A DNA stretch of 64,000 bases from Lachnospiraceae bacterium (GTDB lineage Bacteria > Bacillota > Clostridia > Lachnospirales > Lachnospiraceae). Below are positions 4,020-47,254 of this stretch, in pieces; the first letter of the stretch is position 1, and each line of letters begins with the position of its first letter. Location: assembly GCA_017469405.1 (NCBI GenBank), contig JAFUGL010000023.1, positions 1,111-65,110 on the forward strand, read 5' to 3'. A model generated the notes under the pieces. The model was not told the DNA's origin. It saw only the letters and a program-made list of their open reading frames with translations, and searched no databases. The translations under genes and the position numbers were made by a program.

Positions 4020-5144
4020 TTATTCTTTTTCCATACTTTTCCAGTAGCTGTGGAGCATAATAAATATAATGAACACATAAATTACAGTTATCGCTATATT
4101 TACATACATCAATTCGCGGAAGACTATCATAAATGCCACAAAGGTTATAATTAAAACCGCCGTATTTATCCAGAATCTCTTATCCGGTCTAAGCCTTTCC
4201 TTCGCATATCTGCCGGTTGCAAAAAGGAATATATAATAAAGTAAAAATGAACCGGTTAAAAATAACGTTTTCGGCATCAAATCAACCTCTTCCTCGCGCA
4301 TAAACTCAAGAGCGGTTGTTATATTATTTAATGCAAATATGATAAACACATGAAGCATCATATAACCTGTTCCGTTGGTAGTCATTTCACGGTCAATCAG
4401 ATGGTCGTATATCGTACCGTAGCAAAGGAAAAGACCGACTACAATCAAAAATCCCATTATAGAAAAATAAATTGTATTAAATCCTATCTCGCCTTCAAAA
4501 TAACCCGAAACGGCAATTATCATTTCACCAAAAGTAAATACCACATAAAGCATCGCTCTTTCCGTTAAGTGCGCAAAATCAACCGTCACAAGGCTGTTAA
4601 TCCTTCCTGAAAGAGAGGTTGCAACTATACCAAACAAAATCGGAAGTGCCGCAATCGCAACTCCTGTTATATGATAAACAGGTATAGAAACAAACACCAT
4701 AATTGCTTCTATAAAAATGATAATCATACTTCTTCTTATCTGCACCGTCTCCCATGGTGCCTTTCTTCTGCATTTATTAAATTCGATAAAATACTGCAAG
4801 CATATATTTAACAGAATCAGTCCCCACGCGACATTGTATCTGTTGAAATGAGTCTGCCAGTGAATCCTTGTTCCATCCGCCATGTAGTACAAAAGGTACA
4901 TATTTATAAACAGAAAAATATGATCTCTTAACCCGTTTGTACCGTATCTGTTTATGTAAAAGGTTGTAAAATTCCATATCTGTATAATCGCAAGCGTACA
5001 AAGGACATATGTTAAAAATATTTCTCCCGAAACAAACCCATCCTCCACATGATGAAGTAAAGAATTATTGCGACCGATAAGATATACAAATATCAAATCA
5101 TATATAAGCTCCAGATATTCAACTTTCTTTTCTTCCTTTTCCAT
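4020..5144 (-). CDS. Low temperature requirement protein A (LtrA) family membrane protein
   Basis: LELIYDLIFV N-terminal motif, HLTERAMLYVVFTFGE motif, multiple TM helices. Confidence 0.85.
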   Translation of the reverse strand: MEKEEKKVEYLELIYDLIFVYLIGRNNSLLHHVEDGFVSGEIFLTYVLCTLAIIQIWNFTTFYINRYGTNGLRDHIFLFINMYLLYYMADGTRIHWQTHFNRYNVAWGLILLNICLQYFIEFNKCRRKAPWETVQIRRSMIIIFIEAIMVFVSIPVYHITGVAIAALPILFGIVATSLSGRINSLVTVDFAHLTERAMLYVVFTFGEMIIAVSGYFEGEIGFNTIYFSIMGFLIVVGLFLCYGTIYDHLIDREMTTNGTGYMMLHVFIIFALNNITTALEFMREEEVDLMPKTLFLTGSFLLYYIFLFATGRYAKERLRPDKRFWINTAVLIITFVAFMIVFRELMYVNIAITVIYVFIIFIMLHSYWKSMEKE

Positions 5145-34447: not shown

Positions 34448-35059
34448 TCAATACACTTCCTTATCCCTGCGCTTATTTACCGTAGGCTGCAACATGTTTA
34501 TCTTCTTAAAACACGGGCAATCCTCATCATGGTCATTGATAATCCCGCAAGCCTGTAGATGTGAATAGATTGTTACCTCTCCCACATACTTAAAGCCCCT
34601 CTTCTTCAGATCTTTACTAATCCGCTTTGACAACCCGTTGCTGACAGGAATCTTCCCACCGGCTTTATTATGCCCATTGTACAAAATCGTCTTGTTGTCG
34701 GAGTATTCCCAAATATAATCACAAAAACTTCCGAATTCATCCCGAATTTTCTGAAAGCATTTAGCATTATTGATGACCGCCGCCACCTTCCTTGGAGATC
34801 TGATCATATCCTCTGTAGCAAGAATTCTCCGTATATCATCCTCGCCATACTCTGCAATCTTATCATAATCAAATCCATCAAAACACGAGCGGAAAATCTC
34901 CCGTTTCTTCAGCATCAGATCCCATGACAGACCGCACTGCATACACTCCAATATCAGATGCTCAAACATCTTTCTGTCATCATGGACAGGAACGCCCCAC
35001 TCACTATCATGGTAAACCTTATTACGTTCATTGGTATCAGCCCATACGCAATAACCCAT
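34448..35059 (-). CDS. tag: DNA-3-methyladenine glycosylase I
   Basis: YHDSEWGVP, LECMQCGLSW, IRSPRKV, LKKRGFKYVG, GIINDH. Confidence 0.93.
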   Translation of the reverse strand: MGYCVWADTNERNKVYHDSEWGVPVHDDRKMFEHLILECMQCGLSWDLMLKKREIFRSCFDGFDYDKIAEYGEDDIRRILATEDMIRSPRKVAAVINNAKCFQKIRDEFGSFCDYIWEYSDNKTILYNGHNKAGGKIPVSNGLSKRISKDLKKRGFKYVGEVTIYSHLQACGIINDHDEDCPCFKKINMLQPTVNKRRDKEVY

Positions 35060-35064
35060 ACATA

Positions 35065-36159
35065 TCACTCCTCAAAAAAATCTTTTATCTCCTGCATCCT
35101 GCTCATCTGATCCACTCCAAACATGCAACGACTGTTACAATGTCCACAGCGGATGCAATCGCCCGCTTTATTGTCCAGTGCACGATAATGTTCCATCGCC
35201 ATATCATCTCCGATTTTTGCCAAATCGTAGAACTTATTGATCATGCCGATATCCAGCCCTACAGGACAAGGCTTACAATGGTTACAATATACGCACTTTC
35301 CATTTGCCTCCGGTGGAGCGAAGCTTCCGATGATGCTGTAATCCAGTTCTTCCTCGCTTAGCTCATAAAACTTCAGCAAATGTTCAATCTCCTCAACACT
35401 CTGTGCTCCCGGCAGGACAGTGAGGATTCCGGGCTTGTCTAAAGCGTATTTTATACACTGGTACTGCGTCAATGCCTTACCGAAAGGAGAAGTCTTTGCA
35501 GACAAAAGCTGTCCGCCCGAAAATGGCTTCATCACCGATATCCCTATCCCCAGCTTCTCACATCTCTTATACACATCCGCCCTCTCATCCACGCCGCCAT
35601 AAGCATAATCTCCATGATTATAGTCATACGCCGGATTTACAGAGAACATAAGCATATCAATCAAATCAGTATCGATAATCTCCTGTATCACGGAAGGTGT
35701 ATGTGAAGAAGCTCCTATATGCTTCACAACTCCCTGTTCTTTCATCCCCAGAAGATAATCAAGAACTCCATTTTTTTGATACTTCTTCCAGTCCGAACTT
35801 TCATCCTGACAGTGAATGAAACCATAATCTATATAGTCCGTCTTCAGATCATGCAGCTGCTTGTCAACAGATCTTTTAATCGTGTCAAGATTAAGTGTCC
35901 ACCCATAGGCTCCTTTGGAATAATCCGCTCCAAAATGTATCTGATACATCACCTGATCGCGTACATCAAAAAGAGCTTCTCCAAATATACCAAATGCACT
36001 GCCGTCACCGGCAGCAAGATCAAAATAATTGATTCCATTCTCATATGCATAGCGCACGGTCTTGACAGCTTCACTATAATCTGTCTCTCCGATATAAGCA
36101 GTCCCCATACCAATCTCGCTGATTTTATCTTTTGTGCGTTTGTTTGTTCTGTATTTCAT
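35065..36159 (-). CDS. Aldo/keto reductase with C-terminal 4Fe-4S domain
   Basis: NYFDLA, DYIDYGFIH, VMKPFSGG, CVYCNHCKPCP and CIRCGHCNSRC. Confidence 0.92.
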   Translation of the reverse strand: MKYRTNKRTKDKISEIGMGTAYIGETDYSEAVKTVRYAYENGINYFDLAAGDGSAFGIFGEALFDVRDQVMYQIHFGADYSKGAYGWTLNLDTIKRSVDKQLHDLKTDYIDYGFIHCQDESSDWKKYQKNGVLDYLLGMKEQGVVKHIGASSHTPSVIQEIIDTDLIDMLMFSVNPAYDYNHGDYAYGGVDERADVYKRCEKLGIGISVMKPFSGGQLLSAKTSPFGKALTQYQCIKYALDKPGILTVLPGAQSVEEIEHLLKFYELSEEELDYSIIGSFAPPEANGKCVYCNHCKPCPVGLDIGMINKFYDLAKIGDDMAMEHYRALDNKAGDCIRCGHCNSRCMFGVDQMSRMQEIKDFFEE

Positions 36160-36194
36160 GTTTTTATGGTTGCTCCTTTCTCTTACGTGATTTT

Positions 36195-36244
36195 TCTTGA
36201 ATATAAAATATATTTGTATTTCCGAATTTTAGTTTTGTAAACAT
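36195..36244 (-). pseudogene. 5' fragment duplicate of the MBL-fold gene
   Basis: MFTKLKFGNTNIFYIQ vs MLTKLKYGNTNTFLIQ (37854-37903); 42/50 nt identical by my count. Confidence 0.8.
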
Positions 36245-36246
36245 AA

Positions 36247-36392
36247 CATAAAAGGCAGGTCATTGTTCCGACCTGCCTCTTCTTAGTTGGGAATCTATAC
36301 CCTAAAAACATTTGTTAGGGCTTTTAGCCCTATTCTTCTTTGTTGGTAGTCTATACCCATAATTCTCAAGCAGAGCATCTTGCTCTTTTCTT
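36247..36392 (-). ncRNA. Candidate ~145-nt sRNA built of two ~56-nt repeat units plus a terminator
   Basis: Own promoter, two hairpins with compensatory changes, two 25-bp boxes (22/25 identical), terminator AGGCAGGTC/GACCTGCCT + T run; no ORF. Confidence 0.55.
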
Positions 36393-36398
36393 GGTCTG

Positions 36399-36427
36399 AT
36401 TATAACATATTGAATTAATAGACACAA
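36399..36427 (-). promoter_or_regulatory. Sigma-A promoter for the candidate sRNA
   Basis: TTGTGT-17 bp-TATAAT with an extended -10 TG. Confidence 0.6.
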
Positions 36428-36516: not shown

Positions 36517-36819
36517 TTATATATTTCTACCTTGATATTGTACAGTGACTACATACACAATCTTCTTCTCCCTATCTATCTTAAATATGGCAAGATAGTT
36601 ATCAATAAGAATCTGTTTATATCCTTTTTCTGCATATCTTCCAACCAACCTGTCTTGATGAGATTCAGGAAATATATCTAATGACCGAATAGCAGCCCAT
36701 ATTCTATCTGTCTGTCCTTTGGCATTTTCCGGTGCATTTTTTTCCAAAGCAATATAGGCATAAATATCATCAATATCTCTATATGCCCTTGGATATAACA
36801 TTACTTCATATTTATCCAT
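36517..36819 (-). CDS. RelE/ParE family toxin
   Basis: RAYRDIDDIY, SLDIFPE, YKQILIDNYLAIF; overlaps the antitoxin stop. Confidence 0.9.
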   Translation of the reverse strand: MDKYEVMLYPRAYRDIDDIYAYIALEKNAPENAKGQTDRIWAAIRSLDIFPESHQDRLVGRYAEKGYKQILIDNYLAIFKIDREKKIVYVVTVQYQGRNI

Positions 36820-37075
36820 AGTATTTCTCGTTCAGCCTGTTCATAGCAACATCTAACGGTATAGGCTGAGCCCCTTCTTCAACTTCTTTTTCAGCTTCAT
36901 ATATAGCCTGATCAATTTTGTTTATCTGAGCAAACTTCTCATACAACTCCGCACTCATAACTACCAAATCACTGTAACCGTTCTTTGTAATAAAAATAGG
37001 TTCCTGCTTCTTGTGTGCTAATTCAGATATATCACTTGTGTTTCTTAAATCTCTAATCGGCATAATTGTTGGCAT
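36812..37075 (-). CDS. Phd/YefM family antitoxin
   Basis: IMPIRDLRN, EPIFITKNG, VVMSAELYE. Start MPTIMP after GGAGGTG. Confidence 0.92.
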   Translation of the reverse strand: MPTIMPIRDLRNTSDISELAHKKQEPIFITKNGYSDLVVMSAELYEKFAQINKIDQAIYEAEKEVEEGAQPIPLDVAMNRLNEKYYG

Positions 37076-37095
37076 AATCAACACCTCCTCTATTT

Positions 37096-37132
37096 GCAGC
37101 ATCATTATAGCATAATTATGCTGCGCTGTAAA
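37096..37132 (-). promoter_or_regulatory. TA promoter with palindromic operator
   Basis: TTTACA-17-TATAAT overlapping the palindrome AGCATAATTATGCT. Confidence 0.7.
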
Positions 37133-37206
37133 TAAAAAACGTAAACGTAAAGCCGTAAAGTGAACGTAAAGTGAATTTTTAAATCGTAAAGTGAATTTTT
37201 ACCATC

Positions 37207-37315: not shown

Positions 37316-37903
37316 TTATATAAACCTCTTCTCATTTGCATGAGCATAATATACTACCTTAGGCTTGCATGACATAACCTTGTCCCAATCTTTGGCAAGC
37401 TCTTTGTTATCATCATAAGCCGCAAGAAATGCAAGCGGTTCCAAATCTCCCACAATGCATATCCTCTCATCAAGAACAACCGACACACTATCCACACTAT
37501 GGCTCGGAGTCCGGATAATCTCTCCGTCTATACCTAGCTTACCAAGAAATGCTCTGCTCTCCTCAAAGGAAAGCAAAACCGCCGCACTCTCATCTATCGG
37601 CTTGTATCTAAGTCCCGGTTCCCTTGCAAATATCTCATCGGAATAATGAACCGCTCCTGCTTGTGATTCCATAAGAATCAGTCCCACTCCCTGCTCCATA
37701 AGCTCACTTACCAGCCCGATATGATCAGGATGATAATGTGTAGCAAGAACGTAGTCGATATCCTTTACAGTTATACCATACTCTTTTATGCTTCGGTAGA
37801 ACATAGAAAGCGTACCGGCATAATCGGTATCGATTAGAATATTTCCGGATTCGCCTTGGATTAAAAATGTATTTGTATTTCCGTATTTTAGTTTGGTAAG
37901 CAT
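37316..37903 (-). CDS. MBL-fold metallo-hydrolase
   Basis: THYHPDHIG (HxHxDH), TPSHS, VGD, YAHAN. Confidence 0.88.
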   Translation of the reverse strand: MLTKLKYGNTNTFLIQGESGNILIDTDYAGTLSMFYRSIKEYGITVKDIDYVLATHYHPDHIGLVSELMEQGVGLILMESQAGAVHYSDEIFAREPGLRYKPIDESAAVLLSFEESRAFLGKLGIDGEIIRTPSHSVDSVSVVLDERICIVGDLEPLAFLAAYDDNKELAKDWDKVMSCKPKVVYYAHANEKRFI

Positions 37904-37943
37904 GGGTTGGTCTCCTGTGTGAGATCTCAATTTAAAATTCTCA

Positions 37944-38336
37944 TCACCTAATCTTATCAATAAGCGTAATATCCGCCGGAAGCCATTCAACATTATCCAG
38001 TTCAGACTTTCTTAGCCACCTTGCAGCTTCATGTTCCTTCAAAACCAAATCGCCTTTTATTATTTCACACCAAAAGCAATCCATAGATAAATGAAATGTA
38101 GGATAGTCATATTCAATGGTATCAATTAACTCCCCAACCTCAATATCAGTATCTAATTCCTCTTTAATCTCGCGAATTAAGGCTTCTTGAGGAGTCTCTC
38201 CATCTTCGATTTTTCCTCCAGGGAATTCCCAACCGCCTTTTAAATCACCATAACCTCGCTGGGTTGCAAATATAATAGGTTCGTTATTTTCGTTCTTAGC
38301 TTTGATTACAGCTGCAACAACCCTTATTGTTTTCAT
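37944..38336 (-). CDS. NUDIX hydrolase (MutT-like)
   Basis: GGKIEDGETPQEALIREIKEEL Nudix box; overlaps the helicase stop. Confidence 0.93.
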   Translation of the reverse strand: MKTIRVVAAVIKAKNENNEPIIFATQRGYGDLKGGWEFPGGKIEDGETPQEALIREIKEELDTDIEVGELIDTIEYDYPTFHLSMDCFWCEIIKGDLVLKEHEAARWLRKSELDNVEWLPADITLIDKIR

Positions 38337-41329
38337 ATTTGTTTTTCCTCCGTATCATTACCGCTTTGAAGATAACGCAACAAATCTTCTCTAACAGCGG
38401 TATGCATTTTAACTTTTAGCTTACAAATAGGTTTTAATTCGCCTCTGTTATTCATTTTTTTATCTTCGTATACATCAACGATATCAAATTCCCCCATATA
38501 GAAAAAATTATTTTCTACATCTGTTTTTTGAACCATCAGATGCTTTCTTGGAGAATTTAATACTTTCTGCATATATGCCCCATCAAGTTTTTTATCTATC
38601 TGTGAATCCCATCTAAAAATCACATTGTCTACAAATTCATCTGCATAATCAGGCTTACCATCAATGTACTGCTTTTCTGCATCAGTATTTTCTTCCTTAT
38701 GATACGTAACAAAGATAAAAACATCTTCTCCATCTGACCACATTCCATACATTGTAGAAGAAAGATCCTTTCCGACACCCATGAGCAAACTTACATCTCG
38801 CCTTGAATATTTTTCATAAAGAACAAACGGGCAATCCTTTTTATAAGTATGACTATATTTATCCTGATATCTTGCTAAACCAACTTTAATTATATCTTCA
38901 ACCTGTTCATAGAAATCCTTATGAGCAAGTCTCTGTGAATAGCTCATCATTCTTTCAATAAATGAATCAGAGTTATCATTCACGATATCTATATGACTAA
39001 ATTTTTCAAACTCAGACGAATTGGTAACAAACTCTCCACTAAGCACGTCACATGCAGCTTTGATTTTTGAATTAGTAATTTCATATCCATATTTATCCTT
39101 GCAACTGTCAATAACTTCCTGATATGATATAGACGTTTTATCTTGAAAGAGACGAAGTATTTCCAGCTCATCCGGTCTGACACCACTAAGAATTGTCTTA
39201 GACAAGTATTCTAACGTAAGCTTCTCTTGTTCTGACAACGAGAAAAATGAATCATTATTCTCCATTTTTTCAACAAATGAATAATAGGTCTTATATTCTC
39301 GAATAATAATTAATGGATCAACTTCATCATTTTTATAAAAATCTATGAGCATTGGTATACGACCAAGACGATTTTTTAAATTAGTATATCCCTCTCTAAT
39401 TAACGCCTTAAATGTTTTTGGCTTTATATTATCAATTGCCTTAAATATGCGTTCTCTTGATATAGCATCAAAATGAATCGTTGATGCGCCCGGAATTGTA
39501 TTATTACCACTGATTATATATTTTCGAATTATATCAGCGTTATATGTTCGATCTCCAGATAATGCCACAGGAATCATAAAATTTTGATTATAATTCCCGA
39601 TAAAATCAAGAATAACAACATATTCCTTTCCTTCAGCTTTTCTAAGGCCCCTTCCAAGCTGTTGTATAAATACAATTGGTGACTGTGTTGGGCGAAGCAT
39701 TATTACCTGATTGACCTCAACAATATCTACACCTTCGTTTAAAATTTCCTTTGAGAAAATATAATCCAAAGGAGTTACTTCATCATGCGCATCTTCTTCA
39801 TTCATTGCCAATCGTTCAAATGCATCCTGTCTTTCTTGCTCAGACGCACTACCGTTTAATGCAATGGTTCTATATGGTTTTCCGGTCGCAGGATTTACTA
39901 TCTTGTTAAATTTGGAAGATAATTCTTCCGTTTCTCTTATACTGCTACAAAAGATTAAACCTTTTACCTTTTCCCCACTATACCCATAATAATTAGCCTG
40001 ATTAATAATATGCTTTACTCTCTCATCACTAGTAAGAACTGAAAAATCATGATTGGAATTCTCATCGTCTCCGATAATTGACAAATCAGTTATTCCAAAA
40101 TAATGAAACGGACAAAGCAAATTTTCTTCCATCGCCTGCTGTAATCTTATCTCATAAGCAATCTGATAATGGAAAATCTCATAGACATTTTTTCCTTCAA
40201 TATTGTCATCACGTTTATCCGGTGTCGCAGTCATACCCAGCCAAAGTTTAGGAGTAAAATGTTTCATAATTTTCTGATATGTATCTGCTGGCACATGGTG
40301 TGCCTCATCTAAAACTATGCAATCGAAAGTATCCTTATCGTACTGAAACAAATGCTCATCTCTATTTAACGTCTGTACAGTAGCAAACACATAGTCTGCA
40401 TCATAATTACTATAACCGGCACCTACAAGCCCCATTTTAACAGACTTTGGAAATACCCTTTCGTATGATTTCTTCGACTGTACTGCAAGCTGACCTCTGT
40501 GAACAAGAAACAAAACGCGTTTAAATCCAAGCTCACGCATAGCAAATGCAGATGCATAGGTTTTACCTGTTCCTGTAGCTGAGATAAGTAGAGCTCTTTT
40601 CTCCCCTGAATCTATAATCCTCTTTAAATTTGTTATAAAGCCAACCTGCATACTATTTGGCTCAAGTTTATATTTTTCAATGGAAGTAACATCTTCCTTC
40701 TTTGCCAAAGCTCTCTGATGCTTTATGATATTATAACGTTCATTATATGCCTCATAAAATTCATCATACGAATATGAGTACTCAGAATTCCATAGCTCAT
40801 TATATTCAGCAACTATTTCCTGCGCCATCTCACCTTCTTCGTTAGAAATAAGTTTAGTATTCCACTCGCGATTTCTTGTAAGCGCGAAACCTGTAATATT
40901 GGAACTGCCAATAATGATACTATATATTTCAGATTTTTTAAAAATATACCCCTTAGTGTGAAAGCCTTCACCTGAAGCATCAACATCATACATTTTAAGT
41001 GTAATATTTGATAATTCATTTAGCTTTGTTAATGCTTCCGGCTCACTAAAGCTTAAATAATTTGTAGTTAAGATTTCTCCCGTGACATTCCTTTTTTCTA
41101 ATTCTTTTAATGTTTGAAGAAGCGGAGTAATTCCACTTTTGGTAATAAATGCCACACTTATCTTAAATCCATCGCACATCAACAGCTCATCTTCTATAGA
41201 AGATAAGACTTTCTTTCCTTCTTTATAATTATTAGAAATAAATTGGGGTCTGTATGCAACAGAGGATGCGACGGAACCGTCAATATATGCCGTTTCAAAA
41301 CCAGTTCTTAATTCATCGAATTTTTTCAT
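38333..41329 (-). CDS. PLD nuclease - SF2 helicase - DUF3427 protein (SauUSI-like type IV restriction enzyme)
   Basis: FHTKGYIF (HKD), ATGTGKT, DEAHH, QQLGRGLR, C-terminal YSRRDV/FVTYHK/WDSQ region. Confidence 0.85.
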   Translation of the reverse strand: MKKFDELRTGFETAYIDGSVASSVAYRPQFISNNYKEGKKVLSSIEDELLMCDGFKISVAFITKSGITPLLQTLKELEKRNVTGEILTTNYLSFSEPEALTKLNELSNITLKMYDVDASGEGFHTKGYIFKKSEIYSIIIGSSNITGFALTRNREWNTKLISNEEGEMAQEIVAEYNELWNSEYSYSYDEFYEAYNERYNIIKHQRALAKKEDVTSIEKYKLEPNSMQVGFITNLKRIIDSGEKRALLISATGTGKTYASAFAMRELGFKRVLFLVHRGQLAVQSKKSYERVFPKSVKMGLVGAGYSNYDADYVFATVQTLNRDEHLFQYDKDTFDCIVLDEAHHVPADTYQKIMKHFTPKLWLGMTATPDKRDDNIEGKNVYEIFHYQIAYEIRLQQAMEENLLCPFHYFGITDLSIIGDDENSNHDFSVLTSDERVKHIINQANYYGYSGEKVKGLIFCSSIRETEELSSKFNKIVNPATGKPYRTIALNGSASEQERQDAFERLAMNEEDAHDEVTPLDYIFSKEILNEGVDIVEVNQVIMLRPTQSPIVFIQQLGRGLRKAEGKEYVVILDFIGNYNQNFMIPVALSGDRTYNADIIRKYIISGNNTIPGASTIHFDAISRERIFKAIDNIKPKTFKALIREGYTNLKNRLGRIPMLIDFYKNDEVDPLIIIREYKTYYSFVEKMENNDSFFSLSEQEKLTLEYLSKTILSGVRPDELEILRLFQDKTSISYQEVIDSCKDKYGYEITNSKIKAACDVLSGEFVTNSSEFEKFSHIDIVNDNSDSFIERMMSYSQRLAHKDFYEQVEDIIKVGLARYQDKYSHTYKKDCPFVLYEKYSRRDVSLLMGVGKDLSSTMYGMWSDGEDVFIFVTYHKEENTDAEKQYIDGKPDYADEFVDNVIFRWDSQIDKKLDGAYMQKVLNSPRKHLMVQKTDVENNFFYMGEFDIVDVYEDKKMNNRGELKPICKLKVKMHTAVREDLLRYLQSGNDTEEKQI

Positions 41330-41562
41330 TAGTTACTCCATTAAATATTATTATTCATAATCATTAGCTTCATATTCATTTTTTATAATTCTTTTTCTAT
41401 AATCATGTATTATTAAACTATCGATCTAAATAATTTTTTGCTAACCGTTAATTACAACACGTTTTTACCATTATTATATCACACATCCAATAAACTACAA
41501 ACATTAATCATCCTACTAACACAACTCAAAACACCACATTTATATCATTTCCCAAACAATAA

Positions 41563-41596
41563 GAATATCACAACCAAAAATATGGTTGTGATATTC
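41563..41596 (-). terminator. Hairpin terminator immediately 3' of the tRNA-like fragment
   Basis: GAATATCACAACCA...TGGTTGTGATATTC 14-bp arms. Confidence 0.65.
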
Positions 41597-41616
41597 AAAT
41601 ACAACAATCTAGTTAA

Positions 41617-41640
41617 TGGACATTGGAGGATTCGAACCTC
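41617..41640 (-). other. tRNA 3'-end remnant (att-like)
   Basis: GAGGTTCGAATCCTCCAATGTCCA = T-arm + acceptor 3' strand + discriminator; no D or anticodon arm upstream. Confidence 0.6.
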
Positions 41641-41691
41641 AGGGGTATAACTTTATTAATTCGGTACAAATCTATTATAGGTTGAAGCCTA

Positions 41692-41769
41692 TTACTTCAA
41701 ACAATGCCCGCATACCCCCATGCTACCTATAGAATTAAATATCGTATAGACAATTACCATTAAATCCAT
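41692..41769 (-). CDS. Possible 25-aa peptide MDLMVIVYTIFNSIGSMGVCGHCLK
   Basis: Strong AAGGAGG RBS; otherwise unsupported. Confidence 0.3.
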   Translation of the reverse strand: MDLMVIVYTIFNSIGSMGVCGHCLK

Positions 41770-41998
41770 GACAATTCCTCCTTCAATTTCTATTTCTAGT
41801 TTTTTTAATATTACTGTTATTGAAAGATGTTTTACGACAGTTAGTAAAAATGTACCAGGAATAAACTAATTCATACGATATATACAACTATAACCTGTTG
41901 ATCAGTCTCAATAGGGAACAAAAACAAGACTGAATGTCAACAGAAAAGCTACTGTCGGGGGATGGTTAAATAATTCTGTATAAATTAAAAGCTATCTT

Positions 41999-44074
41999 TC
42001 ATAAATCCTCCAGATGTTCTTCCATATTTTTGTATGCGTAATTCAAAATAGCCTCTGTCTCATCGTCAATTTTTTTAGCGTGAGCATCTGTTCTATTTTC
42101 ATTAATTATTTCCATGTACATATTAAATTTAGTCTTATCTGGCAAAAAACTTTCATAACTCCCATAATCTTTATTTATAATATCTTTCAATTGGATAAAA
42201 TATAGTTCTTGAATTGCATCATCCAATCCATGTTGTTTATTTATTCTTTTTTCTTGCCCTTTATCTTGTGTTGTTTTAGCAGCCACTTCTGCCAGTTTTT
42301 CCTTAGCTTTTTTCCCATATTTACTAAAATAAACTTTTCCAATTAAATTACGTAATTTTAATTCAATATTATTTCTTCTAACTGTATTCTTTGCCCACTT
42401 ATCATCCAATGTCAACGCCGGAATTTCATTTTTATATTTTTCCTTTAAGTGCCTTTCTATCGATTTAATATTAAAACAATAATCCTCTTTATCCCTTTTA
42501 ATCAAACAATAACCAATAAGATGCACAATTATATTATTATCTTCACCAACTTTTTTCCTAAAAGACTGTTCTCCCTCTAAAGCAAATTTCTTTAATAATT
42601 CAAATTCATCAGTATACTGATTTTCTAAAACATTCAAAATTTGGTTAATAATTGAACTAATATCTATTTCTAAATCTTTACGTTGTTTATCATATTTATA
42701 TTTATTTACATTTATAGGTCTCTCCCCTGTATCGTCTAAACTACTGATAATTAAACTACATACTTGTCTTGTAAGAAATGGATGACCGCCATAATCATCT
42801 ATTAATCTAGAATACACTTCTTCGTCAAATTCAACACCTAAATATCCTCCTATTGTAGAAACCATTTCCTTTACATCAGTATATTCAAATAACGGAATAT
42901 AATCAGGTGTCATAATTCCAAATATAGGATTATCATTGCCTTTTATGCTCGATAATTCAATAACATGCGGATTAACACCACATATAATAAACGAAAGAAT
43001 CTCATTATTTTTTTGAGTTATGGATCTAATAGTTTGCCAAAAATTCAACGAATCAGTCCCTGTTTTCCAATGTTTTGTAGGCGAAGTATCATATCCTATA
43101 GACTCAATCTCATCAAACATTAAAAGTATTCTTGTTTTTCCCAATCCTTCATAAATTTCTTTTATGTTATTTTCAAAACTTTTCTTAGCATATTCTTCAG
43201 AATATCTATCTTGAGAATCTTTGAAGTCGTTAATAATAATTTTAAAATCTTTTTCCAGATGCCTACCATAATAATTATCGTCGTCCCTAAACTGAATCAC
43301 CATCTCTTTTATTATTGTTTCTAATACTCTGTACCAGCGCATATTATGATATTGGCTACAGTCGAAATAAATTACCGCGCCATTATCACTTTCAACCCTA
43401 TGCTTTAATAAGTTCAACGTTGATGTTTTCCCAATTCTTCTTAATCCAAACAATCCACTTTGTTCACCTTGCTTATACTTACCAAAAAATGTATGTATTA
43501 AGTTCTGTCTGTCCTTTCCAAAGAAAAATGCATCATCATTTAATGGCGATGCTACACTAAATAAATCTCTTTCATACATAAATACTCGCATCCTATTTTG
43601 AAGAAATTCTGAATTAAATTTCTCATTAAATTCATCGTACGAAAAAGGAATAAAAATCCTGGATTCAGGATGGTCATTTCTATCTCTTAACATTGTATCC
43701 ACAATATCGTCACAATCATCAATTAAAAAAACCGTTATCCTGTCTAAACGATTACGATACTCTCCTGAAATTAGTATATAATCAACTAAATCTTTTGTTC
43801 TGCTCGCAAAGTAGGTCATTGTATTATTTCCACATACAATTAGTACTTCATTATTTAGACCATATAATTGTCTAAGTTTTTTTACAGGTTTAAAAAAGCA
43901 AATACTATATGCAGAACTCTTAAATCTTTGTTCTTTTGAAAATGATATCAATCCAAATTGCGACATACACTCAACTGCATTTCGTATTTTTTCATTTCCA
44001 TTAATCATAATTTTTTTGCCATTAACAGATGCTAATCCAATTTTGTCATCTTTTGACACAAGTTCGTATCTCAT
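41999..44074 (-). CDS. STAND/AAA-type ATPase with C-terminal Swt1/HEPN-like domain
   Basis: Walker A GLRRIGKTS, Walker B LLMFDEIE, GGHPFLTRQ, C-terminal IELKLRNLI...LYFIQLKDII...NENRTDAH. Confidence 0.65.
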   Translation of the reverse strand: MRYELVSKDDKIGLASVNGKKIMINGNEKIRNAVECMSQFGLISFSKEQRFKSSAYSICFFKPVKKLRQLYGLNNEVLIVCGNNTMTYFASRTKDLVDYILISGEYRNRLDRITVFLIDDCDDIVDTMLRDRNDHPESRIFIPFSYDEFNEKFNSEFLQNRMRVFMYERDLFSVASPLNDDAFFFGKDRQNLIHTFFGKYKQGEQSGLFGLRRIGKTSTLNLLKHRVESDNGAVIYFDCSQYHNMRWYRVLETIIKEMVIQFRDDDNYYGRHLEKDFKIIINDFKDSQDRYSEEYAKKSFENNIKEIYEGLGKTRILLMFDEIESIGYDTSPTKHWKTGTDSLNFWQTIRSITQKNNEILSFIICGVNPHVIELSSIKGNDNPIFGIMTPDYIPLFEYTDVKEMVSTIGGYLGVEFDEEVYSRLIDDYGGHPFLTRQVCSLIISSLDDTGERPINVNKYKYDKQRKDLEIDISSIINQILNVLENQYTDEFELLKKFALEGEQSFRKKVGEDNNIIVHLIGYCLIKRDKEDYCFNIKSIERHLKEKYKNEIPALTLDDKWAKNTVRRNNIELKLRNLIGKVYFSKYGKKAKEKLAEVAAKTTQDKGQEKRINKQHGLDDAIQELYFIQLKDIINKDYGSYESFLPDKTKFNMYMEIINENRTDAHAKKIDDETEAILNYAYKNMEEHLEDL

Positions 44075-44338: not shown

Positions 44339-45016
44339 TCAAAAATAAATTGCTATATGCAACCGATCATTCTGACCACCCAAAAACAAACAATCCATAT
44401 CAACATTTCCTTTTCCAATTGTGTTTAAATCCAATTGGCACGGAAATATCTTTCTATAGTTATATACCAAATCTCTTGTTAAAATCTCATTTAAATTTGT
44501 TTTATTATTCATCAAAAATGGAAAATACACTAATCTTTCCTTATTAACCGGATTACGAACACCTCTTCCCATCCCAAGCTGCATTACTTGCCCGAAATAA
44601 TCTAAACAATTGCACCATATTAATACAAATGCTCTTTTTTTCTTGTTACCATTAATCAACTCACCCTCTAACCATTGAAAATCCTTTTCAAATTCAACCC
44701 ACGCTTTACTTGCTGTTTGTGTCTTAAACGCAGAATTCCAATTTTTTAGATATTTTATCTCAATAATAAAATCTTTAGATGGAATAAAAATATCATGATG
44801 AGATTGATTGTTCTTATTATCTTGTACCTCATAATATGCCAAATCTTTAAAATACTCACCAATTTTATATACCCAGTCTCTTTCTACATATCGCTTGTTA
44901 GCCTCCGCTTTAAAATCCTCTAACGAAAAATGCTCATAACGTACATTAACTTGATCAATTATCAAAGAACATATTAAATCCAAATATTCATTAATCGGTT
45001 TTTCATTTCTTTCCAA
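44339..45016 (-). CDS. Putative PD-(D/E)xK nuclease-fold protein
   Basis: HHDIFIPSKDFIIEIKY motif; AT-rich. Confidence 0.5.
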   Translation of the reverse strand: MERNEKPINEYLDLICSLIIDQVNVRYEHFSLEDFKAEANKRYVERDWVYKIGEYFKDLAYYEVQDNKNNQSHHDIFIPSKDFIIEIKYLKNWNSAFKTQTASKAWVEFEKDFQWLEGELINGNKKKRAFVLIWCNCLDYFGQVMQLGMGRGVRNPVNKERLVYFPFLMNNKTNLNEILTRDLVYNYRKIFPCQLDLNTIGKGNVDMDCLFLGGQNDRLHIAIYF

Positions 45017-45539: not shown

Positions 45540-46439
45540 TCACATCCACATTTTGTTCTTATAACTCCATCGTTTATCGAAATATTCTTTTCTAAGTATG
45601 TTCAGATAGATTGGTTCAAGAAATACCACCAGCCTGTCCAGCATATCATCAAACAGCAAACCTGTTTCCTTCGCCGGATCAAACGCATTCCACAGGGTAT
45701 TCAATGCAGTATTGTTCTTAAAATCCGCAATTTCCTCAAAAACATCAGCCGATAATTTTCTGTTACGATGAGTCAATGTACTTTTAACCGCTTCTATAAG
45801 AACCATTCCTTCAAAATCAAATATCCCTGACAGATAATAAATGTCATAGAAATCCTTCATCCTGCTTGTTCCGGCCATTCTCTGAAGAATTGCATCAAAT
45901 TTTTCTGCAATAGTACTTTCCAACGAATAAGTGTATACCTCCGGAGAGGTAAAATCGGGTAATCTTGTAACAATTGACCTTTTAATCGGATTAGGTACGA
46001 TTACATCATCAATACCGATATCAATTAAAAACGGAATCCTCACCTTTCCTATACGTCCAATAAAATTAATTTTTACACCGGGATATTTTTTATCTAACGA
46101 TATATTCTCTGTTCCCAAAACCTCCAATGTTATAAAATCATTTCCCGTACTGACATTGCAGATTTCTCTCATTATCTGCTCTATGTTGTCCGGGTTTCCT
46201 TGCAGATTCCTTATCAAGAAATCAATATCTCTTGTCGGTCTTGAATCAAACTCCGTAAGTGTATATATAAACATTCCACCCTTCAAAATCAGGTTATTAT
46301 CATATTTGGAAAGGGATAATTTTCTCAAAAATTCTTCCTGTGCAAAGAGCTGAAGTACCATCTGAAACGGAATCCCCTCTTCTTTTGACTGATTTTTCAA
46401 TCTTGTCAGCACTGATGCCTCCATATTCTTTATAGCCAT
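45540..46439 (-). CDS. AbiEii nucleotidyltransferase toxin (type IV TA)
   Basis: LILKGG, RPTRDIDF, STIAEKF, SRMKDFYDI. Confidence 0.92.
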   Translation of the reverse strand: MAIKNMEASVLTRLKNQSKEEGIPFQMVLQLFAQEEFLRKLSLSKYDNNLILKGGMFIYTLTEFDSRPTRDIDFLIRNLQGNPDNIEQIMREICNVSTGNDFITLEVLGTENISLDKKYPGVKINFIGRIGKVRIPFLIDIGIDDVIVPNPIKRSIVTRLPDFTSPEVYTYSLESTIAEKFDAILQRMAGTSRMKDFYDIYYLSGIFDFEGMVLIEAVKSTLTHRNRKLSADVFEEIADFKNNTALNTLWNAFDPAKETGLLFDDMLDRLVVFLEPIYLNILRKEYFDKRWSYKNKMWM

Positions 46440-47023
46440 ACTCCCAGCACCTCCCTTACCTTCTTTTCCACATGAAGTAGCTTGGCATACTTCATTAGTC
46501 TTGCCGTTGCCTTATTCGGATCTTGGACATATCGTTGGATAGCTACATTGAAAACTTCTCCGTCAACTTTGTTCCTATGCAGAAGCAGATCACAAATTGT
46601 TCTTTCCCTATCATATATCTTGATAGGTTTCCCATCAATTTCAGTTTCTTCTATCCCAACCCGGTATCGATCATTCCGAATAAAGTGTGGCTTCACAATA
46701 GGATAATCTATATAGAATCTTGTTCTTGTACTCTTATTATCCACTGCCAGATGCCACGCTGCCGGAGTCCTGTCTGTGTAACCATAGTAATCCAATGCAC
46801 TTTCCATACAGATTACACCATCCGGAAATAGTGTAGTAATGATAGGAATGTCCGAAAAGGAATCTTCTCCTGAGTACTGATAATAGCCTCGTCTAATCTG
46901 CTCAATCTCACCATCTTCAAGCAATTGCTGAATTTTTTTATAATAAATGCCTTCCTCTTTAAGTTCAGAAGTTCTCATCAGACCACCATACATATCAAAA
47001 ATTTTTTTAATATTTTCATTCAT
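46430..47023 (-). CDS. AbiEi antitoxin / transcriptional regulator (type IV TA)
   Basis: IEQIRRGYY, ICMESALDYYG, IYDRERTICD; overlaps AbiEii. Start at MNENIK. Confidence 0.92.
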   Translation of the reverse strand: MNENIKKIFDMYGGLMRTSELKEEGIYYKKIQQLLEDGEIEQIRRGYYQYSGEDSFSDIPIITTLFPDGVICMESALDYYGYTDRTPAAWHLAVDNKSTRTRFYIDYPIVKPHFIRNDRYRVGIEETEIDGKPIKIYDRERTICDLLLHRNKVDGEVFNVAIQRYVQDPNKATARLMKYAKLLHVEKKVREVLGVWL

Positions 47024-47254
47024 AATACAATCCCTCTTTTTTATCATAATATACAATTTAATTATAGTTTTTGTATAGTTTGATAAATTAAGTATATCTG
47101 TTGTTTCGAAAAAAGTCAAGATAAACAGTCAACAGAGATAATAATTTCTGTTGGCAATTTTTTATAAAAATTGTTATATTTTTTAATTCTAAAAAAAGAC
47201 ACTTCTTAAATACTTAAGAAGTGTCCCATAATCATTTCATAATATTTCAATTTC

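Follow-up and report, generated by a model that had tools for sequence, protein, structure and literature searches.

Antitoxins made of RNA have been described for toxIN, cptIN, tenpIN, AvcID and AbiF, and none of these toxin–antitoxin (TA) classes has a toxin of the PemK/MazF family. Canonical type III loci run in the order promoter, repeats, terminator, toxin; a single toxIN locus, in L. jensenii, was noted with the toxin first and the repeats downstream (PMC3401426). Here, we analyzed a tandem-repeat RNA encoded on the minus strand, at 36427-36247, of a 64,000-nucleotide stretch of DNA (the window) from a rumen Lachnospiraceae bacterium (assembly GCA_017469405.1, contig JAFUGL010000023.1). 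An original prediction, made from the letters alone, had proposed an orphan type III-like antitoxin at this site. Comparison with related loci leads us to favor, with some reservation, a reading in which this RNA family is the antitoxin of a type III-like pair with reversed gene order and a MazF-fold toxin, the window copy being an orphan of that family.

All predicted parts of the RNA were found on the minus strand. Its own promoter consists of a −35 hexamer, TTGTGT (36422-36427), and, after a 17-nt spacer, a −10 hexamer, TATAAT (36399-36404), preceded by TG and thus of the extended −10 type; the TGnTATAAT form is conserved family-wide, while at related loci the −35 keeps both its TTGTnT form and its position directly after the toxin stop codon. 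The RNA probably starts at about 36393-36391. An AAGAA motif (36388-36392), near-invariant in family alignments, precedes hairpin A of unit 1, AGAGC-AAGAU-GCUCU (36372-36386; AGAGCA-AGA-TGCTCT as DNA), which is followed by a 25-nt box, GGGTATAGACTACCAACAAAGAAGA (36334-36358), made up of hairpin B, GGGUAUAGACUACC, and the tail AAC-A-AAGAAGA. Unit 2 comprises hairpin A, UAGGGCU-AAA-AGCCCUA (36316-36332), and the box GGGTATAGATTCCCAACTAAGAAGA (36278-36302), with an intact hairpin B, GGGUAUAGAUUCCC, and the tail AAC-U-AAGAAGA. The intrinsic terminator (36247-36281) has a stem that begins inside the tail of box 2, with 13 pairs, six of them G-C, over 36281-36250 and then a T run. The two boxes are identical at 22 of 25 positions with a spacing of 56 nt, and the two A hairpins differ by two compensatory pair changes, both as originally described. 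Scanning the window with a degenerate box pattern gave two occurrences, with 0.01 expected. The RNA gene measures roughly 145 nt, and the inferred transcript of ~149 nt folds with a z score of −5.9 relative to shuffled versions. The prediction that the locus lacks an open reading frame (ORF) also stands: the overlapping ORFs of 41 and 42 amino acids found here were judged mechanical, and unit alignments contain indels of 1-3 nt, so the RNA family has no conserved reading frame.

We searched genomes, metagenomes and viral contigs for the 25-nt box by exact-pattern scans, and plasmids for the RNA by blastn. Matches were obtained at 30 genome loci, mostly from Lachnospiraceae and other Clostridia, at 51 metagenome loci and on six viral contigs, about 85 loci overall; a match in L052, inside GC-rich coding DNA, was set aside as chance. 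A blastn search of the whole plasmid collection found the RNA only on NZ_CP148683.1, a 3.6-kb C. perfringens plasmid, where a two-unit RNA lies directly behind a 212-amino-acid gene annotated as a PemK/MazF toxin. A homologue of this toxin is encoded on the same strand as the RNA at 20 of the 30 genome loci and at ~19 of the 51 metagenome loci. Every toxin-linked locus has the same gene order of toxin, RNA promoter, repeats and terminator, with the toxin stop codon 78-118 nt before box 1, that is, 5-40 nt before the −35 hexamer of the RNA. Tandem repeats, two units in most family loci, thus adjoin the toxin gene; in the window, the repeats are present with no such toxin. What had been predicted of such a search, namely a link of the box to an RNase toxin gene in other genomes, is borne out at the level of the family, with tight and directional linkage to a protein of endoribonuclease fold. 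The partner is of the PemK/MazF family rather than ToxN-, CptN- or AbiF-like, and the expected order of repeats, terminator and then toxin is reversed, with the toxin upstream and the RNA transcribed from a promoter of its own.

The linkage also holds in the reverse direction. When five toxins, 58-76% identical to the reference, were picked on protein sequence without regard to the RNA, all 15 of their loci contained a match to R1, a covariance model that finds the window RNA at 36334-36400 with 67.5 bits (E 6e-12). These matches scored 66-81 bits and started 34-45 nt after the toxin stop codon. Three more distant homologues (30-45% identity) come from a second C. perfringens plasmid and from small plasmids of the B. 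cereus group; after each of them, at the same position, lie a promoter, tandem hairpin repeats of other kinds and a terminator. At L113, the repeats form 4.3 copies of a 29-nt unit, AGGGAGUGAAAUCCCAACG..., while L114 and L115 have three hairpins that share a UGUGAUG loop, exchange their stems (GAGC/GCUC and GGGU/ACCC) and are each followed by AAC. The repeat type thus shifts with the toxin clade, as expected of cognate partners. On the B. cereus plasmid pHT3 (L114:2477-2530), we also noted a Bacillus-plasmid RNA (RF01691, 63.8 bits) ~130 nt downstream of the toxin-linked repeats.

Loss of one partner was asymmetric. Orphan RNAs, in which RNA, promoter and terminator are kept and the toxin has been lost by independent events, are frequent. 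The toxin is reduced to its last few codons (..EAKNL*) in L071, L081, L082 and L085 and to 16 codons in L088; L012, L084 and L032 likewise preserve traces of its last codons. L063 shows a fusion of the toxin N-terminus to the RNA linker, and L057 has lost half of hairpin A. Further orphans occur in unrelated contexts; one type recurs in eight contigs from metagenomes, human gut being the source of one or more of them. At L011, a 216-amino-acid protein encoded upstream of the RNA was considered as a toxin and rejected as unrelated to the toxin profile, which makes this locus another orphan. No toxin gene lacking a downstream repeat RNA was seen in the sample examined. Many RNA-only loci and no toxin-only locus are what one would expect of a protein that does harm unless the RNA accompanies it.

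The partner is a highly conserved protein of ~204 amino acids, of which residues 8-100 match PF02452 (PemK_toxin) above the curated cutoff, followed by a C-terminal part of ~100 amino acids that is predicted to be helical. In a structure search with an AlphaFold2 model (mean predicted local distance difference test score of 80), MazF structures ranked first, with E values of ~1e-3 and template modeling scores of ~0.6 on the target, while CptN appeared at rank 22 (probability 0.97). Thr48 and His28 are invariant over all clades and sit at the positions of the catalytic Thr and Arg of MazF. The partner is a candidate endoribonuclease with a MazF-like fold. Its sequence gave no match to Protein Data Bank chains of ToxN, CptN or TenpN structures, no match to a PADLOC model and no match to a specific NCBIfam model; NCBI annotation calls these genes 'type II PemK/MazF family toxin'. 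The family is of modest size, comprising 149 clusters at 50% identity, many of which are fragments. Upstream of the toxin gene, only a promoter and ribosome-binding site recur and the neighboring genes vary by locus; with no conserved upstream ORF, there is no candidate protein antitoxin.

Toxin–RNA modules occur on plasmids and in defense islands with DruA, AbiH, Mrr and TIR genes. In L102-L107 (1-5300), the module lies between nSTAND3/DruA and AbiH/Mrr genes, and in L111 (4931-5615), it adjoins a TIR-domain gene. On the C. perfringens 3.6-kb plasmid (L010:969-1577, minus strand), the gene upstream of the toxin encodes a protein of 202 amino acids with a weak match to PF00227 (proteasome subunit, Ntn hydrolase-like; E 1e-7), which is not conserved beside the toxin elsewhere. 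In a Phascolarctobacterium metagenome-assembled genome (L017:2118-2226, minus strand), a drum RNA (RF02958), whose score of 43.6 bits barely exceeds the threshold, directly precedes the PemK-type toxin gene.

Units of the RNA family are built from AAGAA, hairpin A, an A-rich linker, hairpin B (GGGUAUAGAYUCCC) and AAC-N-AAGAAGA. Hairpin A is 95% paired over 52 distinct units, compared with 32-64% for slid registers, and covaries at three of its five pairs (A-U/G-C/U-A, C-G/U-A/U-G and A-U/G-U/G-C), with a covariation score that none of 500 shuffles reached. Hairpin A of unit 2 in the window supplies one of three G-C pairs found at a position where the family has A-U. Hardly any sequence variation is seen in hairpin B (GGG/CCC) or in the AAGAA and AAC-N-AAGAAGA tracts, including at loci where the toxins share only ~50% identity, and the box as a whole is 24-25/25 nt alike between such loci, which indicates strong constraint on these elements at the sequence level. 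A clade-specific variant of hairpin B, GGGCUUAAAYGCCC, adds a fourth C-G pair; in unit 1 of the window, a C-to-A change breaks the third GGG/CCC pair, the sole unpaired cell at that position among the 52 units. The repeats of the distant toxin clades resolve the 56-58-nt unit into two units of ~29 nt, one consisting of hairpin A with an A-rich tail and the other of hairpin B with AAC and an A-rich tail. Two toxin-linked loci, L051 (6640-6750) and L079 (oriented 1130-1240), have a single unit with an extra small hairpin in the linker (GACCGCAAGGUCGG and GGCUGAAAAGCC), which implies that the linker tolerates insertions.

We scanned the window and 28 related loci against Rfam 15 at gathering and permissive thresholds. 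Curated thresholds gave no match in the window or in 18 related loci, and permissive scans of the window element, the toxin-linked loci and the distant plasmid loci returned noise only; the database check suggested with the original prediction therefore placed the RNA in no Rfam family. The best sub-threshold match, to SQ1002, a C. difficile small RNA (sRNA) adjoining feoA2, at window positions 36193-36400 was rejected, lying on the plus strand, opposite to the RNA, and scoring 27.8 bits against a threshold of 128. Read in reverse complement, the SQ1002 consensus has a hairpin and, after it, GGGUAUAAUUC; the resemblance may reflect distant kinship or chance. As for expression, cattle and pig gut metatranscriptome contigs span the 3′ half of the toxin gene and the commonest type of the RNA, and one low-depth metatranscriptome contig spans a one-unit relative of the window RNA. 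These contigs show no transcript ends and may contain DNA, so they indicate at most that the loci are transcribed.

Judged by its arrangement, the pair behaves like a type III TA system yet fits no known family. It resembles toxIN in combining a tandem-repeat RNA and terminator with an endoribonuclease of the Kid/MazF superfold on plasmids and in defense islands. However, the partner belongs to PF02452 rather than to PF13958 (ToxN/AbiQ), and two alternating kinds of hairpin, of ~29 + 29 nt, take the place of 36-nt pseudoknot repeats. CptIN from Coprococcus/Eubacterium (PDB 4RMO) shares Lachnospiraceae hosts, about two repeats of 40-48 nt and an A-rich single-stranded stretch; its toxin CptN, by contrast, is a weak structural neighbor far below MazF and has no sequence similarity to the partner, and the locus has another RNA sequence and the opposite gene order. 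For tenpIN, the partner had no sequence match to TenpN structures. The type II systems MazEF and PemIK share the toxin domain PF02452 and provide the best structural matches in MazF, but the family described here has no MazE- or PemI-like gene, carries an extra helical C-terminal domain of ~100 amino acids and has a repeat RNA in the partner position. The pemK RNA motif of Rfam (Weinberg et al. 2017) is, to judge by its name, a pemK-associated structured RNA candidate of Bacillota; its model matched neither the window RNA nor 25 related loci at E values up to 10 or up to 1. No description of the toxin–RNA pair was found in the literature searched, which included few subscription journals, and the RNA family is apparently undescribed.

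The history of the window copy was traced in close relatives with a 95% identical copy of the aldo/keto reductase gene downstream of the RNA. Here, a complete toxIN lies between a metallo-β-lactamase-fold (MBL) gene and the RNA (L117:1975-2729; also L116:1585-2112, L066 and L118), with a TTGACA-17-TATAAT promoter, 49-nt ToxI repeats, a terminator and a ToxN gene (PF13958, E ~1e-43), and the RNA begins ~65 nt after the toxN stop codon. These toxN genes therefore have ToxI repeats of their own upstream. In L039 (oriented 4808-4960), the ToxI repeats are kept and toxN is deleted, leaving a second orphan RNA antitoxin beside the first. In the window, the whole toxIN module is replaced by Phd/ParE, with a breakpoint ~8 nt upstream of the −35 hexamer of the RNA. 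L116 has a two-unit RNA like that of the window, and L117, L039, L066 and one metatranscriptome contig have a single unit in which the unit 1 hairpin is joined to the unit 2 box. Hairpin B of unit 1 is broken in the window (ACC) and, differently, in L116 (CTC); promoter, unit 2 and terminator are intact in the window, L116, L117, L039 and L066 despite ~9-12% divergence of the flanks. The adjacency of RNA and toxN looks lineage-specific: the only plasmid with the RNA, NZ_CP148683.1, is of the PemK type and is not among the matches listed (12 of 72) for the 72 plasmids with ToxN homologues. From this comparison, the RNA has evidently long been without a PemK-type partner in this lineage and marks the constant border of a site where TA cassettes replace one another. 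The original suggestion that the cognate toxin had been deleted is thus supported in part: loss of the toxin with retention of the RNA is common in the family, but no deletion of a PemK-type gene is visible in this lineage.

The immediate neighbors of the window RNA are encoded on the same minus strand. Downstream lie the gene for the aldo/keto reductase, a 364-amino-acid protein with an Fe-S domain (35065-36159) whose synteny with the RNA is found only in this lineage, and then that for the 3-methyladenine glycosylase Tag (34448-35068). Upstream, ParE (36517-36819) and Phd (36812-37105) form the type II cassette (36517-37105) that fills the variable slot and lies outside the RNA module. It is followed further upstream by an MBL-fold gene (37316-37993), a NUDIX gene and a gene for a DUF3427/helicase/PLD protein. 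The MBL gene fragment that had been placed directly after the RNA is therefore a complete gene further upstream, with reductase and tag genes in the supposed position. Between the MBL gene and Phd (37140-37205, minus strand), we noted a terminator-like hairpin, GCGCCACAAAT..ATTTGTGGCGC. Two direct repeats of AAAAATTCACTTTACG and shorter copies of the form (T)TTACG come next, immediately before the Phd promoter, and may be operators of the Phd/ParE cassette. Genes located less than 10 kb from the RNA encode an AbiEii/AbiEi type IV TA pair, the DUF3427-helicase-PLD protein and an AAA ATPase (45540-47119 and 38333-44074), and the island further includes a type IIG-like restriction–modification enzyme. 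Together with Phd/ParE, these genes confirm the predicted defense-island setting. A 225-amino-acid ORF at 44339-45016 had no Pfam match. The suggestion that the RNA might act on nearby HEPN-like proteins found no support, as no link between the RNA and HEPN proteins emerged.

Boxes also occur apart from both hairpin A and toxin. Single exact copies of the 25-nt box, often with a AAGAAUUUUA linker, lie in intergenic positions on viral and metagenome contigs (L041:5907, L042:437, L043:168, L045:7575, L046:3915, L060:808, L078:2133, L080, L089:3606 and L093). In all four contigs scanned, phage genes flank the box: a tail fiber gene in L041 and genes for the exonuclease phrog_284 in L042, L043 and L045, the box in L045 being directly upstream of the exonuclease gene. 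No integrase was found beside the phage copies examined, and BLAST searches of the INPHARED phage genomes detected neither the toxin nor the RNA. Phage PhiTE reportedly carries a pseudo-ToxI, an RNA mimic through which it escapes ToxIN. The toxin-free phage contigs with an exact box are similar in kind, but differ in that the phage copies lack hairpin A. By analogy, the single boxes of phages may be RNA antitoxin mimics.

These comparisons establish that the window RNA belongs to the family, that the family is genetically linked to the toxin with one-sided loss, that the toxin has a MazF fold and that hairpin A forms a conserved structure. From them, we infer that the protein is toxic, that it binds the RNA, that the array is processed and that the copy in this genome may have a present-day function. 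In the proposed mechanism, the extended −10 promoter of the RNA itself would drive its production in excess, and the 3′ portion of the toxin transcript would probably be a further source of it. The toxin would probably cut the array at the purine-rich unit borders, and the resulting hairpin units would bind and silence it. The window orphan may still be transcribed and could neutralize incoming toxins of the family on plasmids or mobile elements; alternatively, it may be a slowly decaying remnant. Antisense control of the toxin by the sRNA was considered and is unlikely: RNA and toxin gene lie on the same strand without overlap, pairing with the toxin translation start was no better than in shuffles, and no UCUUCUU occurs near the toxin ribosome-binding site.

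Several points weigh against the antitoxin reading. The candidate role is put forward from comparative genomics, and the evidence for expression consists only of the low-depth metatranscriptome contigs, which possibly include DNA. The test from toxin to RNA covered five main-family and three distant proteins, a sample of the family. Hairpin B and the tails provide no covariation evidence because they are nearly invariant, and the gene order is opposite to that of canonical type III loci. For the window copy in particular, no homologue of the PemK-type toxin occurs in the 64 kb, neither the window nor its close relatives show a detectable remnant of one, and in those relatives the RNA follows a complete toxIN with ToxI repeats of its own, so that a deleted PemK-type toxin is hypothetical for this lineage. 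That the family is an antitoxin and this copy a functionless relic is possible, though we lean away from it. Along with the missing partner, the different breaks in hairpin B of unit 1 (ACC and CTC) and the loss of one unit in relatives through box-to-box recombination are consistent with decay, whereas the intact promoter, unit 2 and terminator across diverged flanks and the pairing of unit 2 hairpin A, which survived two double changes, speak for retained function.

A second possibility is that the RNA belongs to the toxin module without being an antitoxin, as a 3′-untranslated region or decoy that tunes stability or translation of the toxin mRNA, a processed cofactor or a sensor substrate; the orphan would then have no neutralizing role. 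The position 3′ of the toxin gene, with a terminator that is probably shared, agrees with this idea, and the near-invariant box could equally be a recognition or cleavage site. We regard it as unlikely, as the strong promoter of the RNA is conserved in all loci, complementarity to the toxin translation start does not exceed that of shuffles and distant toxins each have their own repeat type, as cognate antitoxins would; moreover, common orphan RNAs with no RNA-less toxin are expected of an antidote and not of a cofactor. A role mainly at the DNA level, as a boundary for recombination or insertion during TA cassette exchange or as an attachment site common to phages, would agree with the sharp breakpoint just upstream of the −35 hexamer, where toxIN, a toxN deletion or Phd/ParE is found, with the identical 25-mer on phage contigs and with an IS91-type transposase nearby in relatives. 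It nonetheless appears highly improbable, given that the compensatory changes in hairpin A point to a transcribed RNA, as do the conserved promoter and terminator, that no integrase adjoins the phage copies examined and that these copies lack the flanks of a shared att core rebuilding a gene. We give almost no credence to a riboswitch or protein-dependent attenuator acting as leader of the aldo/keto reductase-tag operon. Promoter, structured RNA and terminator do share the orientation of the reductase gene and precede its start by ~90 nt, and this synteny is kept in close relatives. Yet a promoter-like TTTACA-17-TACAAA separates terminator and reductase gene, reductase homologues of 72-90% identity occur in other contexts without the box, and other lineages have unrelated or opposite-strand genes after the RNA. 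Neither an Rfam match nor an alternative antiterminator pairing was found, and a riboswitch or attenuator is further disfavored by the lack of both a common downstream gene and a competing fold. The RNA is found in company with the toxin or by itself rather than with the reductase, which makes a reductase leader unlikely.

Returning to the antitoxin reading, its broader form stands in our view at even chances: an unrecognized RNA-antitoxin family of Clostridia and Bacilli, in which a PemK/MazF RNase with a helical extension is paired with a downstream array of ~29-nt hairpins, and orphan chromosomal copies and phage units serve as portable antidotes. If so, MazF/PemK, the best-studied type II toxin family, would have controlling RNA antitoxins in addition to protein ones, and type II and type III systems would be joined through one toxin fold. 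The systematic annotation of these genes as a 'type II PemK/MazF toxin' without partner would be corrected, and gut Clostridia and Bacillus plasmids would offer a compact RNA–protein pair for work on plasmid maintenance and phage defense. Orphan chromosomal copies such as that in the window would then represent immunity against plasmid addiction and the phage units anti-defense mimics, together a tractable case of RNA antidotes circulating apart from their toxins.

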